A stretch of 64,000 bases of DNA from an uncultured Lachnospiraceae bacterium (GCA_946615865.1 CAMOIJ010000001.1:35640-99639); one strand, 5' to 3'; counted from the stretch's first letter, positions 1,143 through 6,373 are shown. Notes: generated by a model from the letters alone, not told the origin. A program made the numbers and translations.

Positions 1143-1544
1143 TCATTTACGGACCAGATCGCTCAGCCACTTGCTGTGGAAAAAGTCATGGGTCAGTTTG
1201 TCGTACTCCGCCCACATGGGCAGAGTTTCGCACTCTCCCGCTCTGGGGCAGGGAACTGCGTCATTTGCAAGGCAGGCCACGGTCGCCAGGGAGCCCTCCA
1301 TCAGTTCGATAACTTCGCCGATGTTGTACTCCTCGGGTTTCCGATTCAATTTGTAGCCGCCGCCCTTGCCGCTCACTCCGGTCAAAAGACCGCCGACGAC
1401 CATATCTTTAACAATGATCTCCAGGTATTTTTTGGAAATATTCTGTCTGGCAGCGATGTCCTTTAAAGGGATGTAGCTGCCGTTATCATTTTCTGCAATA
1501 TCGATCAATACGCGGATCGCGTAGCGCCCTCTGGTTGAGATCAT
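1143..1544 (-). CDS. Rrf2 family transcriptional regulator (CymR/IscR-like)
   Basis: MISTRGRYAIR start, ISKKYLEII and GKGGGYKL winged-helix motifs, C-x7-C-x5-C; start trimmed to ATG 1544 after GAAAGGCGG; divergent from metY-cysK. Confidence 0.9.
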   Translation of the reverse strand: MISTRGRYAIRVLIDIAENDNGSYIPLKDIAARQNISKKYLEIIVKDMVVGGLLTGVSGKGGGYKLNRKPEEYNIGEVIELMEGSLATVACLANDAVPCPRAGECETLPMWAEYDKLTHDFFHSKWLSDLVRK

Positions 1545-1567: not shown

Positions 1568-1657
1568 TGCCTATTTTATAGTAGGTAAATGGGTAAATCA
1601 AGATGTGCGGTACAAATTTCCAAATATTTGCCTATTGACATGATAGGTTAATAGGCA
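1568..1657. promoter_or_regulatory. two related inverted-repeat boxes, candidate Rrf2 operators
   Basis: TGCCTATT-N13-AATAGGCA (1629-1657, perfect arms) and TGCCTATT-N12-AATGGGTA (1568-1595), both with internal TAGGT. Confidence 0.6.
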
Positions 1658-1663
1658 TATAAT
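1635..1663 (+). promoter_or_regulatory. sigma-A promoter of leader-metY-cysK
   Basis: TTGACA(1635-1640)-17 bp-TATAAT(1658-1663), perfect consensus. Confidence 0.85.
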
Positions 1664-1703
1664 GGCGCCAAGAAATGATTCTCACCAAAAGGAGGCTTAA
1701 ACG

Positions 1704-1829
1704 ATGTTCCGCAAATATACATCTGATCAGAATATCGTTATGTGTTGGCGAATGTTGAACTCCCGGGCATATAGGATGGCCGGGGCGTCCGACTGCATGT
1801 CCGCACGCCTCATGAAAGAGCGATGTTAG
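1704..1829 (+). CDS. putative Met/Cys-rich leader peptide (41 aa)
   Basis: AAGGAGG RBS at 1689-1695; MFRKYTSDQNIVMCWRMLNSRAYRMAGASDCMSARLMKERC*; 6 Met + 3 Cys; lies between promoter and a terminator. Confidence 0.65.
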   Translation: MFRKYTSDQNIVMCWRMLNSRAYRMAGASDCMSARLMKERC

Positions 1830-1857
1830 TGCTGCAGGCACACACACTTGCCATTTG

Positions 1858-1891
1858 CCCGGGAGCTTCTCAAAGGATCCCGGGATTTTTT
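1858..1891 (+). terminator. intrinsic terminator in the metY leader (attenuator)
   Basis: CCCGGGA...TCCCGGG stem followed by ATTTTTT, upstream of metY start. Confidence 0.65.
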
Positions 1892-1953
1892 ATGTCCCGG
1901 GATCTGCCTCAGGCAACCGCAAGAATATAAAGAACCAAAAAAGGAGAAATAAA

Positions 1954-3237
1954 ATGAGCAAGTACAAATTTGAAACCCTGCAGCTGCACGTTGGACAGGA
2001 ACAGGCCGATCCGGCTACCGATTCCCGCGCCGTTCCGATCTACCAGACCACTTCCTATGTGTTCCACAACAGCAAACACGCGGCGGACCGCTTCGGACTC
2101 GCCGATCCCGGCAACATCTACGGCCGTCTGACCAATTCCACCCAGGAGGTGCTCGAGAAGCGTCTCGCTGCTCTTGAAGGCGGCACCGCTGCCCTGGCAG
2201 TAGCTTCCGGCGCGGCGGCCATTTCCTATACGATCCAGGCCCTGGCCGCAGGCGGCGGCCACATCGTCGCGCAGAAAACTATTTACGGCGGAAGCTTCAA
2301 CCTTCTTGGCCACACACTTCCCCAGTACGGCATCGAGACGACTTTCGTGAACGCGCACGACCTGGCGGAGCTCGAAGGCGCCATCACAGATAAGACACGG
2401 GCTGTGTATCTGGAGACCCTCGGCAACCCGAACAGCGACATTCCCGACATCGACGCGATCGCGCAGATTGCTCACAAGCACGGGCTTCCGCTGGTGATCG
2501 ACAATACCTTCGGAACTCCCTATCTGATCCGTCCTATCGAACACGGAGCCGACATCGTCGTCCACTCCGCGACGAAATTCATCGGAGGCCACGGCACGAC
2601 ACTGGGCGGCATCATCGTCGAGTCCGGCAAATTCGACTGGGGCGCCGGCGGGAAGTATCCTCAGCTTGCGGATCCCAATCCCAGCTACCACGGGATTTCT
2701 TTCTACGATGCTGTTGGACCGGCTGCTTTCGTGACCTACATCCGGGCGATCCTGCTGCGCGACACAGGCGCCGCTATTTCTCCTTTTAACGCATTCCTGC
2801 TCCTGCAGGGCGTGGAGACCCTCTCCCTGAGGCTCGACAGGCACGCCGAGAACACGAAGAAGGTCGTCGAATACCTCGCGGCTCATCCGCTGGTGGAAAA
2901 CGTCAATCACCCCTCCCTTCCCGATCACCCGGATCACGCGCTTTACACGCGGTATTTCCCGAACGGAGGCGCCTCGATCTTCACCTTTGAGATCAAGGGC
3001 GGCCAAAAAGAAGCCTGGGATTTCATCGATCATCTGGAGATCTTCTCCCTGCTGGCCAATGTGGCAGACGTCAAGAGCCTTGTGATCCACCCCGCTTCCA
3101 CCACTCACTCCCAGCTCTCTGAGGAGGAGCTCCTGGACCAGGGTATTAAGCCCAACACCATCCGGCTCTCCATAGGAACCGAGCACATAGATGACATTAT
3201 CGCGGACCTCGAGAAGGGCTTTGCCGCTCTTGGCTGA
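1954..3237 (+). CDS. metY: O-acetylhomoserine aminocarboxypropyltransferase (OAH/OAS sulfhydrylase)
   Basis: ETLQLHVGQ, PIYQTTSY, IYGRLTN, HSATKFIGGHG (PLP Lys), LANVADVKSLVIHPASTTH; start after AAGGAG. Confidence 0.93.
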   Translation: MSKYKFETLQLHVGQEQADPATDSRAVPIYQTTSYVFHNSKHAADRFGLADPGNIYGRLTNSTQEVLEKRLAALEGGTAALAVASGAAAISYTIQALAAGGGHIVAQKTIYGGSFNLLGHTLPQYGIETTFVNAHDLAELEGAITDKTRAVYLETLGNPNSDIPDIDAIAQIAHKHGLPLVIDNTFGTPYLIRPIEHGADIVVHSATKFIGGHGTTLGGIIVESGKFDWGAGGKYPQLADPNPSYHGISFYDAVGPAAFVTYIRAILLRDTGAAISPFNAFLLLQGVETLSLRLDRHAENTKKVVEYLAAHPLVENVNHPSLPDHPDHALYTRYFPNGGASIFTFEIKGGQKEAWDFIDHLEIFSLLANVADVKSLVIHPASTTHSQLSEEELLDQGIKPNTIRLSIGTEHIDDIIADLEKGFAALG

Positions 3238-3330: not shown

Positions 3331-4263
3331 ATGGCTAATATTCACAAGAGCGCTGCGGAACTGATCGGAAACACCCCTCTTTTAGAGGTCACAAATATTG
3401 AGAGAGACCTTGGACTGAAAGCGAAAGTCCTTGTGAAACTTGAGTACTTCAATCCCGCGGGAAGCGTAAAGGACCGCATCGCCAAGGCGATGATCGAAGA
3501 CGCGGAAGCCAAGGGTCTGCTGAGAGAAGGCTCCACGATCATTGAGCCCACATCCGGCAATACCGGTATCGGTCTTGCGGCGATCGCAGCCGCGAAGGGC
3601 TACCGCATTATTCTGACGATGCCCGAGACCATGAGCGTGGAGAGACGCAATATTATGAAAGCATACGGAGCGGAGCTTGTCCTCACAGAGGGCTCCCAGG
3701 GCATGAAGGGCGCGATCGCCAAGGCCGCCAAGCTGGCGCTGGAGATCCCGAACAGCTTTATTCCCGGCCAGTTCGTCAATCCGGCCAACCCGGCGATCCA
3801 CAGGGCGACCACCGGTCCAGAGATCTGGCGCGACACCGACGGCAAGGTAGATATCTTCATCGCAGGTGTCGGAACGGGCGGCACGCTGACCGGCGTAGGT
3901 GAATATCTGAAGTCTCAGAATCCCAATATCAAAATAGTGGCACTCGAGCCGGAAGGGTCCCCGGTCCTCTCCGAGGGCAGAAGCGGCGCCCACAAGATCC
4001 AGGGCATCGGCGCGGGCTTTGTCCCGGAAGTCCTGAACACGAAGGTCTACAGCGAGATCTTCCGCGCAGCCAATGAGGACGCCTTTGCCGCGGCGAAGCT
4101 CCTCGCCAAGAAGGAAGGCGTTTCCGTAGGAATCTCCTCCGGCGCAGCCCTGCACGGCGCGATCGAGCTGGCTAAGCGCCCGGAAAACGCAGGCAAGACT
4201 ATCGTGGCCCTGCTCCCTGACAGCGGTGACCGTTATTATTCCACCGCGCTGTTTACAGAATGA
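3331..4263 (+). CDS. cysK: cysteine synthase A
   Basis: NPAGSVKDRIA (PLP Lys), EPTSGNTGIGLA, GVGTGGT, HKIQGIGAGF, DSGDRYYST. Confidence 0.95.
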   Translation: MANIHKSAAELIGNTPLLEVTNIERDLGLKAKVLVKLEYFNPAGSVKDRIAKAMIEDAEAKGLLREGSTIIEPTSGNTGIGLAAIAAAKGYRIILTMPETMSVERRNIMKAYGAELVLTEGSQGMKGAIAKAAKLALEIPNSFIPGQFVNPANPAIHRATTGPEIWRDTDGKVDIFIAGVGTGGTLTGVGEYLKSQNPNIKIVALEPEGSPVLSEGRSGAHKIQGIGAGFVPEVLNTKVYSEIFRAANEDAFAAAKLLAKKEGVSVGISSGAALHGAIELAKRPENAGKTIVALLPDSGDRYYSTALFTE

Positions 4264-4281: not shown

Positions 4282-4325
4282 AAAGGCGCGCACATGCGGA
4301 TGTTCTTTCCGCTGTGCGCGCCTTT
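4282..4325. terminator. bidirectional intrinsic terminator
   Basis: AAAGGCGCGCACA...TGTGCGCGCCTTT inverted repeat between convergent genes. Confidence 0.75.
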
Positions 4326-4346
4326 GTGCGTCAAAAGCATGATCTA

Positions 4347-4931
4347 TTACTTGTTATCCTTCGGCTTCTCTGTTGTCTCAGAGTTAACCTCTGTATATTT
4401 TGACTTAGTGTCCTTCGGAGCCGTTTTCTTCCCTGATTCGCCTGTCTTCTTGATCTCTTTCCAGTCAGAGAGCCAGTCCGGCACCTTGTCCGTGGACGAG
4501 AACTCAAAGGTTTCGACAAACAGGAATTTGCGTGTCACGAAGATAATAGCGATCGCGCATACCGTCAGAAGGTTCTCCAATGAATTGCCGCCCTCGAGGA
4601 CCATATGCCTCGACAGAGCGAACAGCAGCACTTCGATAACACTGCCCGGCGTATGCTTGATAAGCATCTTGATGAACTCGATTCCGATGACCAGATCGAG
4701 CGCGCTCTCTAGGAAATGACGGTACGAAACAGTGCCCTGGCTCATCGAGCCCAGAAGCGGCAGTTCTCTCACCAGCGGGTACACGCTTATGATGAAGCCA
4801 AACGCCACGATGATCGCGATACCGATCTCGAAAATATCCATCAGGTGTTCCAAATACGCGGTAACATGATGAATCCTGTCCCCTACACTTTCATGGCTTT
4901 CATGAACATTATTGTTGTCGTGATCAGACAT
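4347..4931 (-). CDS. PsiE-like (phosphate-starvation-inducible E family) membrane protein
   Basis: about 4 TM helices, LDLVIGIEFIKML..H...VIEVLLFALSRHMV pattern; charged C-terminal tail. Confidence 0.65.
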   Translation of the reverse strand: MSDHDNNNVHESHESVGDRIHHVTAYLEHLMDIFEIGIAIIVAFGFIISVYPLVRELPLLGSMSQGTVSYRHFLESALDLVIGIEFIKMLIKHTPGSVIEVLLFALSRHMVLEGGNSLENLLTVCAIAIIFVTRKFLFVETFEFSSTDKVPDWLSDWKEIKKTGESGKKTAPKDTKSKYTEVNSETTEKPKDNK

Positions 4932-5092
4932 ACAATCCCCCTATCTTTTTCATCTTCCCCACGGCACCAACTTATTGCCTGCAATGATATTGTACTATAT
5001 CCCGGCACTTTCTTGAGGTTTTTTTTCGGAAATGCTACAGTAAAATGTAACATTACTTTCATTTTATGTGATTAACACTGAGGGGGCAAAAC

Positions 5093-6373
5093 ATGGATTT
5101 CAACAGTGATGACTTCAGAGACCAGCTTGAAGCGATTCTCTTCAAGATCAAAACAGGCTTCACACAGGTGATCAGGCTCCTGGGCTACGGCCTTTTGTGC
5201 GGTACGATCGTCGGAGCGGTTGCCAGCGTCTTCGCGCTTGGCATTGATTATGCCACAGAGCTGCGGGCGCAGCATCCCTGGGTCATCTTCCTGATGCCGA
5301 TCGGCGCGGCTGTCATCGTCTTCTTCTACCAGAAATTCGATCACAGCGAAGGGACAGACACCGTCCTCCTGGCGGTCACAAGAAATGAGAGCGTCCCCGG
5401 TACCATGGCTCCCCTGATCTTTTGTTCCACGATCCTTTCCCACTTTATGGGCGCTTCCGTAGGCCGCGAAGGTGCGGCGCTGCAGATCGGCGGATGCCTT
5501 GGCGATGAGATGGGCAAGCGCCTTCATTTCCAGGAAGAAGCGCGAAGGATCATGGTAATGGCCGGTATGAGCGCAGCTTTCTCGGCACTCTTCGGAACGC
5601 CGCTGGCAGCCACAGTAATCGCCATGGAGATCAGCCATGTAGGCCTTCTCCAGTACGACGCGCTAGTCCCCTGTGTTCTCTCAGCTCTTCCCGCCTACTA
5701 TATTTCCGCCATGATGGGCGTTGAAAAGCATCCCTGGGCACTCTCCGCGGTGAAGCCTTTCTCCCTGCCTATGGCTGTGGCCACCTTCGTACTGGCCGTT
5801 CTTTGCGCGCTGGTCAGCGTCCTCTTTGTCGTCGCTCTGGGCAGGATCCCTGCACTGGCGAGGAAGATCCCCGCTTCCCCGATCCCCCGCGCGGCGATCG
5901 TCGCAGTCATCCTGCTTGTCATGACCCTCCTCTCCGGCGGCCAGTTCTACAACGGCGCGGGCGGACACGTCATCACCGAATGCCTGCAGGGAGAACCCGT
6001 CCCTGTCTACGCATTCCTTCTGAAGATCCTGTTTACAGCCGTCTCCATCGCAGCCGGCTTCAAGGGCGGTGAAATTGTTCCCGCACTGTTCATAGGTGCC
6101 TCTTTCGGCTCTGTCGTCGGACCTCTCATGGGTATCCCCAGCGGTCTTGCGGCAGCCATCGGCATGGGCTGCCTATTCAGCTGCGTCACCAACTGCCCTC
6201 TCGGCACTCTTCTCATCTGTTTCGAGATGTTCGGCTTCGAGGGCTGGCCCTACTACCTTCTGGCCATCGCCATCGCCTCCACCGTATCCGGAAACTATGG
6301 CCTCTATCATCACCAGAAGATCCGCTACGGCAAGTTCAAGGTTGGCGTTGAGGATTCGCATGCGCATCATTGA
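5093..6373 (+). CDS. CLC family chloride channel/antiporter (EriC-like)
   Basis: GASVGREGAALQIG, AAFSALFGTPLAA, GFKGGEIVP, VTNCPL; multiple TM helices. Confidence 0.9.
   Translation: MDFNSDDFRDQLEAILFKIKTGFTQVIRLLGYGLLCGTIVGAVASVFALGIDYATELRAQHPWVIFLMPIGAAVIVFFYQKFDHSEGTDTVLLAVTRNESVPGTMAPLIFCSTILSHFMGASVGREGAALQIGGCLGDEMGKRLHFQEEARRIMVMAGMSAAFSALFGTPLAATVIAMEISHVGLLQYDALVPCVLSALPAYYISAMMGVEKHPWALSAVKPFSLPMAVATFVLAVLCALVSVLFVVALGRIPALARKIPASPIPRAAIVAVILLVMTLLSGGQFYNGAGGHVITECLQGEPVPVYAFLLKILFTAVSIAAGFKGGEIVPALFIGASFGSVVGPLMGIPSGLAAAIGMGCLFSCVTNCPLGTLLICFEMFGFEGWPYYLLAIAIASTVSGNYGLYHHQKIRYGKFKVGVEDSHAHH

Follow-up and report, generated by a model that had tools for sequence, protein, structure and literature searches.

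A putative ribosome-mediated attenuator with methionine and cysteine codons in the metY–cysK leader of a Lachnospiraceae bacterium and its relatives

The metY–cysK locus and its leader

The window analyzed here is a stretch of 64,000 nt, one strand, from an uncultured Lachnospiraceae bacterium (GCA_946615865.1, CAMOIJ010000001.1:35640-99639), and positions are counted from its first letter. Near the start of the window, metY is followed by cysK on the plus strand, and a gene for an Rrf2-family regulator points away from them on the minus strand. A promoter, a short upstream open reading frame (uORF) and an intrinsic terminator lie in the interval before metY. The features used below are as follows.

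1143–1544, minus strand: divergent Rrf2-family regulator gene, 133 aa from the ATG at 1544 (Pfam Rrf2, 3.3e-31)
1630–1648, plus strand: palindromic box GCCTATTGACATGATAGGT spanning the -35 element, with the promoter embedded in it
1635–1663, plus strand: promoter, -35 TTGACA (1635–1640), 17-nt spacer, -10 TATAAT (1658–1663), 12/12 consensus matches
1689–1695, plus strand: Shine-Dalgarno sequence (SD) AAGGAGG, 8 nt 5' of the ATG at 1704
1704–1829, plus strand: uORF of the leader peptide, 41 codons (Met, 6; Cys, 3), with CGA-TGT-TAG at its end
1740–1754, plus strand: putative sensor codons ATG TGT TGG CGA ATG (M13 C14 W15 R16 M17), a conserved block directly 5' of segment A
1760–1769, plus strand: segment A, CTCCCGGGCA, codons N19–A22, the predicted antiterminator 5' strand and exact reverse complement of 1856–1865
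1776–1780, plus strand: ATGGC, 5' strand of the antiterminator extension P1b, pairing with GCCAT at 1850–1854
1782–1811, plus strand: inner hairpin B:C, GGGGCGT (1782–1788) with ACGCCTC (1805–1811), -12.1 kcal/mol in the window
1821–1829, plus strand: terminal CGA-TGT-stop, a second pair of rare Arg and Cys codons, recurring in relatives
1850–1865, plus strand: GCCAT (P1b 3' strand) and TGCCCGGGAG (1856–1865), the terminator 5' arm and predicted antiterminator 3' strand
1858–1891, plus strand: intrinsic terminator, CCCGGGA (1858–1864) with TCCCGGG (1878–1884), 13-nt loop, A-T6 at 1885–1891, -15.3 kcal/mol
1875–1905, plus strand: hairpin of the terminator 3' arm with the fourth CCCGGG copy (1895–1905), 12 bp perfect, -22.3 kcal/mol, z -4.95
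1954–3237, plus strand: metY, O-acetylhomoserine sulfhydrylase, the predicted first regulated gene (TIGR01326, 624 bits)
3331–4263, plus strand: cysK, cysteine synthase A, the second gene (TIGR01139, 445 bits)

A preliminary description of this DNA had reported the promoter, SD, 41-codon uORF, terminator and segment A, and each of them is present base for base where it was placed. A simple terminator scan missed 1858–1891 because the loop is 13 nt long. Directly 3' of cysK, two plus-strand ORFs overlap (4294–4719 and 4716–5075; 141 and 119 aa). Neither has a Pfam or NCBIfam match, and a ClC-type channel gene (5093–6373) follows them.

The uORF encodes methionine at M1, M13, M17, M25, M32 and M37 and cysteine at C14, C31 and C41. 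Two Met/Cys pairs result, M13-C14 and C31-M32. Met and Cys thus make up 9 of 41 residues, compared with about 4.5% in the long ORFs of the window. Taken alone, this is weak evidence. The comparative data given below decide the matter, and by them the uORF is judged not to be a chance ORF. A search of the leader peptide against Pfam returned a match to DUF3918 below threshold only (E 0.028).

Sulfur amino-acid genes of Firmicutes are ascribed to S-box, T-box and CymR-type control. Leader-peptide attenuation is textbook knowledge for Proteobacteria and is regarded as rare in Firmicutes. At gathering score, Rfam 15 gave no relevant match in the 64-kb window. With E values up to 10, positions 1550–2000 returned only chance-level matches (E of at least 2.7), and 20 homologous loci contained nothing but one tRNA. 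The leader had been proposed to be distinct from the S-box and T-box, and this holds for the window and the 20 loci, in which the SAM-I (RF00162) and T-box (RF00230) models are unmatched. The whole assembly (88% complete) gave two T-box matches and none for SAM-I (RF00162). In this genome the leader peptide may take the place of the S-box.

A full-text literature search gave no paper on a Met/Cys leader peptide in Clostridia, nor any described transcription-terminating leader peptide for Met and Cys. Leader peptides have been considered essentially unknown outside Proteobacteria and Actinobacteria, with a His leader noted in bacilli (Naville & Gautheret 2010, PMC2965389). According to Canestrari et al. 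(10.1101/834739), uORF attenuation for cysteine had not been described. The polycysteine small ORFs (sORFs) that these authors studied in mycobacteria are leaderless and act by translational control.

Recurrence of the leader and conservation of its peptide

The core of the leader occurs a second time in the same genome, on contig C14 (locus L006). This second leader has its own SD; its uORF encodes the run C-M-M-C-M-R-M, its A segment is the same and its terminator matches. It precedes a lipoprotein gene with SBP_bac_3 and NlpA domains. An nhmmer profile search of the genome found no leader copies beyond these two. Relatives were sought with the pattern ATGTGY-N3-CGN-ATG-N6-TCCCGGGC, one mismatch allowed. 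Of 400 other genera of the family, 13 have a match, and none matches a reversed control pattern. An exact search with CGA gave at least 118 contigs of a species-representative genome collection, where about 4 chance matches would be expected, as estimated from the 38 bits of the pattern. Since the search patterns fix the core, the large set could not show variation in it; only the search of 400 genera left the third base of the Arg codon free. The comparisons that follow bear on features left unspecified by the patterns. The leader set comprises 135 instances, 129 after removal of exact duplicates and 90 non-redundant.

Most hosts among the matches listed come from rumen and gut and belong to the Lachnospiraceae, Ruminococcaceae, Oscillospiraceae, Acutalibacteraceae, Saccharofermentans, Blautia and Butyrivibrio; also among them are Collinsella/Coriobacteriaceae and one Atopobacter. 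In the former, which are gut Actinobacteria (L079, L085 and L106), and in the latter, a member of the Lactobacillales (L046), the leader and terminator stand before metY-like genes. Their presence in these hosts suggests that the leader and its gene were transferred horizontally as a unit. The matches listed include Lachnospiraceae bacterium XBB2008 and AC2029, Ruminococcaceae bacterium KHP2, Collinsella sp. and Atopobacter sp. AH10.

Among 119 first downstream genes, 74 encode Cys_Met_Meta_PP proteins, the PLP enzymes of Cys and Met metabolism, and 68 of these 74 are MetY-like by BLAST. A further 31 carry NlpA/MetQ and 15 carry SBP_bac_3, 12 being fusions of both. ABC permeases and one CysK are also found. 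Together these genes form a sulfur amino-acid regulon. The fusion lipoprotein of SBP_bac_3 and NlpA/MetQ often lies 3' of the leader, both in the same genome (L006/L023) and in the 12 loci, for example L013, L052, L077 and L114. Joining an SBP_bac_3 domain, of the polar amino-acid or cystine type, to NlpA/MetQ suggests that a single protein binds both sulfur amino acids. A division of the leaders into separate Met-only and Cys-only classes was considered and rejected, as Met/Cys content is similar before Met transporters and before MetY.

Conservation indicates that the uORF is likely translated. An SD of at least 5 nt with an ATG or GTG in frame with the core is found in 84 of the 90 non-redundant leaders; the other two frames have such a start in 1 and 2. 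In 93 of the 135 instances the uORF begins 12 codons (63 instances) or 11 codons (30) ahead of the core, and the stretch between start and core, about 12 variable codons, is not conserved in sequence. Frame 0 has no stop before +51 nt, and only 1/90 leaders stops before +60, compared with 17/90 and 43/90 in the off-frames. From the uORF stop to the terminator arm the median distance is 34 nt.

Sulfur codons are enriched in this frame. Outside the searched core, in-frame ATG accounts for 6.1% of N-terminal and 5.8% of C-terminal codons (off-frame, 1.2–3.7%), and Cys codons in the C-terminal part outside the core account for 10.0% in frame versus 4.2–4.9% off-frame. Directly 5' of the core, 26% of leaders have a Met codon and 12% a Cys codon. 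Overall, the leader peptides contain 11.8% Met and 10.0% Cys; the long ORFs of the window contain 2.7% and 1.8%. The suggestion of an unannotated, translated Met/Cys-rich leader is thus borne out by a start in frame in 84/90 leaders and a Met/Cys enrichment confined to that frame.

The family core reads Met-Cys-Cys/Trp-Arg(CGA)-Met, followed by two codons and then CTCCCGGGC. At position 15 the leader of the window has Trp (M-C-W), where most relatives have a second Cys (M-C-C). The 15-nt block ATG TGT TGT CGA ATG takes part in none of the helices supported below, and codon identity is the best explanation of its conservation. Ribosome stalling had been proposed to occur at C31-M32. This position must be given up, since C31 is merely semi-conserved and M32 is not conserved; the conserved sensor comprises codons 13–17.

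The Arg codon in this block is unusual. CGA is the rarest Arg codon in the long ORFs of the window, at 3.3% of Arg codons. The assembly carries tRNA-Arg(ACG) and no cognate UCG tRNA for CGA, so CGA would be decoded solely by inosine-adenosine wobble. In the search that left the third base free, 16 of 18 matches have CGA. CGA plausibly brakes the ribosome at the decision point. The uORF ends CGATGTTGA or CGATGTTAG in 22/90 non-redundant leaders, a sequence that lies outside the search pattern, and its last two residues are RC in 25/90. Some relatives have an internal second CGA-ATG-TGT, which repeats the module of a rare Arg codon with sulfur codons.

Antiterminator pairing and the promoter box

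Segment A had been proposed as an antiterminator strand that competes for the terminator 5' arm (T5'). In the predicted whole fold of the leader RNA (-96.4 kcal/mol, z -4.3), A is paired with this arm. The resulting antiterminator domain spans about 110 nt and has a predicted energy of -49.7 kcal/mol, compared with -15.3 for the terminator. A hairpin at least as stable as -8 kcal/mol with a T run is found in 107/129 leaders, and in most of those that fail this criterion the U tract is interrupted.

Covariation was counted in an alignment of 83 non-redundant leaders. The A:T5' helix (10 bp) is 99.3% paired across them, and it is the sole consensus helix that RNAalifold finds unguided. At pair 104:253, 74 leaders have GC, 8 have AU and 0 are unpaired. 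The same position in all anchored leaders is G:C in 111, A:T in 10 and A:C in 2. Where A reads CTCCCAGGC, the Ser-Gln-Ala variants, the terminator arm reads GCCTGGGAG. The change from G-C to A-U arose in about 3 independent lineages, related sequences not being independent. The terminator 3' arm keeps G, forming a G-U pair, in most of these lineages, which indicates that the change in the 5' arm serves pairing with A. The antiterminator role assigned to A is thus upheld by a covarying helix with compensatory changes.

The P1b extension (5 bp) is 79% paired, with compensatory changes at 4/5 pairs, and the inner hairpin B:C is 73–79% paired, with compensatory changes at 6/7 pairs. For the whole antiterminator structure, 87% of cells pair, versus 25–48% with slid partners, and 41 cells are changed on both sides versus 14.9 +/- 3.2 in shuffles (0/500). 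The conserved residues S-R-A, M-A, A-G-A and R-L are explained by these helices, as constraints on the RNA. Since CCCGGG is palindromic and four copies of it lie here, part of the complementarity listed above follows automatically; this does not apply to the 10-nt A:T5' match or to its covariation.

Two other pairings had been put forward. The first was an anti-antiterminator between A and 1776–1784. This hairpin exists in the window (-14.8 kcal/mol), and 82% of cells are pairable, but its covariation is no better than in shuffles. Positions 1776–1780 covary instead with 1850–1854, as the antiterminator extension. The A:1776–1784 hairpin is possibly no more than a kinetic helper. The second was a further partner for the terminator 3' arm, at 1876–1904. 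The hairpin is real in the window, but a complement of at least 7 nt is found in only 6/90 leaders. It can form solely in read-through RNA (1875–1905), and we read it as a lineage-specific lock of that RNA.

A second conserved element lies at the promoter. Across the leaders, the box has the consensus ACCTATTGACATAGTAGGT (ACCTA...TAGGT), a near-invariant palindrome at the -35 element that is kept across several Clostridial families. Its core, CTAYTGAC, is present in 70/89 non-redundant leaders, mostly 62–66 nt upstream of the uORF start. The box resembles an operator bound by a dedicated transcription factor.

The divergent Rrf2 gene is a neighbor in other loci too. The protein encoded at 1143–1544 scores above the cut-off for NCBIfam rrf2_super and below it for the CymR and IscR equivalogs; three cysteines cluster near its C-terminal half. 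Orthologues with 61–80% identity are divergent and no more than 400 nt from the leader in 13 non-redundant loci, and an orthologue lies within 3.5 kb of the leader in 20/90. The regulator is a candidate repressor binding the box at 1630–1648. The overall design is likely to combine promoter repression by this regulator with attenuation in the leader.

Proposed mechanism, alternatives and significance

The leader shows every feature of leader-peptide transcription attenuators that can be tested in sequence. It is probably a ribosome-mediated transcription attenuator that gauges how much charged Met- and Cys-tRNA is available. The preliminary description had proposed an attenuator of this kind for both sulfur amino acids, and the in-frame start, the covarying antiterminator, the sulfur regulon and the absence of an Rfam match in the loci searched all argue for it.

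In the proposed mechanism, transcription would begin at about 1670 from the operator-bearing promoter. A ribosome would load at the strong SD and translate the 41-codon leader. With Met- or Cys-tRNA in short supply, it would halt at codons 13–17 (AUG UGU UGG CGA AUG). A ribosome covers about 15 nt on either side of the first base of the P-site codon. With any of codons 13–16 in the A site, its leading edge would reach no further than the 5' end of A or slightly into A. Left free, A would pair with 1856–1865 and 1776–1780 with 1850–1854, closing the antiterminator domain of about 110 nt. This would sequester the terminator 5' arm and allow read-through into metY–cysK. When supply is ample, the ribosome would advance a few codons and cover A, then the extension and the inner hairpin. 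A would then be occluded as the 5' arm emerges, the local terminator would form, and transcription would stop at 1885–1891.

From this arrangement we infer the stalling itself, the direction of the response, the geometry of the footprint, the role of CGA and the unpaired state of A after the ribosome has passed. Because the RNA alone prefers the antiterminator, termination would require either that a ribosome sit on or close to A when the choice is made or that the A:B hairpin (A with 1776–1784) form transiently. In Firmicutes, RNA polymerase is considered to run ahead of ribosomes, and attenuation that depends on timing is a less obvious option there. The attenuation model gives no account of the conserved terminal CGA-UGU-stop.

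The conserved core could also act as a nascent chain. In an arrest peptide, the sequence M-C-C-R-M-L-x-S-R-A in the exit tunnel would stall the ribosome on free Met, Cys or SAM and operate the same downstream RNA switch; TnaC shows nascent-peptide stalling of this sort in response to tryptophan. The core is indeed conserved as peptide over about 10 residues, Leu follows R-M in the majority of leaders through several different Leu codons, the distance from start to core is narrow (11–12 codons), and the 15-nt sensor block is outside all supported helices. RNA pairing, however, accounts for S-R-A and M-A, and the position after R-M is also occupied by F, Q, R, P, S, Y and others. The enrichment of Met/Cys codons extends outside the core. 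Genes for biosynthesis and uptake need induction when the end-product is low, and hunger codons give that directly. We consider an arrest peptide unlikely. A ribosome-independent riboswitch is a still less likely explanation. On this view a sulfur metabolite would be the ligand of the domain of about 110 nt that A:T5' closes, with the overlapping ORF playing an incidental or secondary part. In its favor, the domain is stable, its helices covary and the RNA alone chooses between two exclusive folds. Against it, the interior of the domain is variable and lacks a conserved unpaired pocket, and no Rfam model matches in the window or the 20 homologous loci. A pure RNA sensor would also make the conserved SD, start, frame and in-frame Met/Cys enrichment superfluous, and the most conserved unpaired block consists of the Met/Cys/Arg codons themselves.

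Under control by protein alone, the CCCGGG palindromes would be bound, as DNA or as RNA, by a protein such as the divergent Rrf2 regulator, and the uORF would not serve as a sensor. This reading draws on the four CCCGGG copies in the window, the near-invariant promoter palindrome and the Rrf2 gene divergently adjacent in 13 loci, and promoter-level control very likely exists as well, judging from these features. As the only control it is highly improbable. The promoter box (ACCTA...TAGGT) is unrelated to CCCGGG; A:T5' and its extension tolerate G-U while A-C is rare, which fits RNA pairing rather than a DNA site; and the in-frame start and Met/Cys enrichment would be left unexplained.

The proposed attenuator resembles the trpL, hisL, pheL, leuL, thrL and ilvL leaders of E. 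coli and Salmonella and the His leader of bacilli, which likewise have a short SD-led ORF with regulatory codons from about codon 10–13. As in these classical systems, an intrinsic terminator precedes the structural genes, and the antiterminator shares a strand with the terminator and has its other strand just 3' of the regulatory codons. Two amino acids would be read in one leader, as in the thr and ilv leaders. The differences are several. Met and Cys would be sensed here, and the hosts are Clostridial, where such systems have been thought nearly absent (PMC2965389). The antiterminator is long-range (strands about 96 nt apart) and encloses a structured domain largely inside the ORF. Unlike in the classical attenuators, the RNA alone favors the antiterminated fold, and the rare CGA is embedded in the putative sensor. 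The Clostridial leaders also match none of the Rfam leader families.

The mycobacterial polycysteine sORFs (10.1101/834739) are similar in being small uORFs with consecutive Cys codons before cysteine-related genes, where the ribosome senses Cys supply. They read Cys only, act translationally and have no intrinsic terminator, whereas the leader described here has a conserved terminator, mixed Met and Cys codons and a strong SD. They are also leaderless, whereas here about 40 nt, the SD among them, separate the end of the -10 box (1663) from the ATG. There is no sequence similarity between the two. With the S-box (RF00162) and the Met/Cys T-box (RF00230), the leader shares its targets, namely metY, cysK and metQ-type transporters, and a choice between antiterminator and terminator in the 5' leader. 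Those RNAs sense SAM and uncharged tRNA, respectively, whereas the proposed sensor here is the translating ribosome.

The CGA codon allows a further, tentative proposal, in which the sensor would be a tuned codon pair and more than a row of hunger codons. CGA in the P site just before AUG, and again before UGU-stop, might slow decoding in the A site and so heighten sensitivity to Met- and Cys-tRNA supply. This could enable timing-dependent attenuation in Clostridia despite weak coupling of transcription and translation. Together with the co-inherited Rrf2 operator, it might form a two-tier sulfur regulon that replaces the S-box in these lineages. The CGA-AUG pair lends itself to testing how codon pairs affect sensing by the ribosome. 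For annotation, the signature of the family is the promoter box, SD, M-C-C-R-M, CTCCCGGGC and terminator. If the reading as an attenuator is true, a Met/Cys leader would add a missing amino-acid class to ribosome-mediated attenuation, and it would help explain how methionine synthesis and uptake are regulated in many abundant gut and rumen anaerobes.
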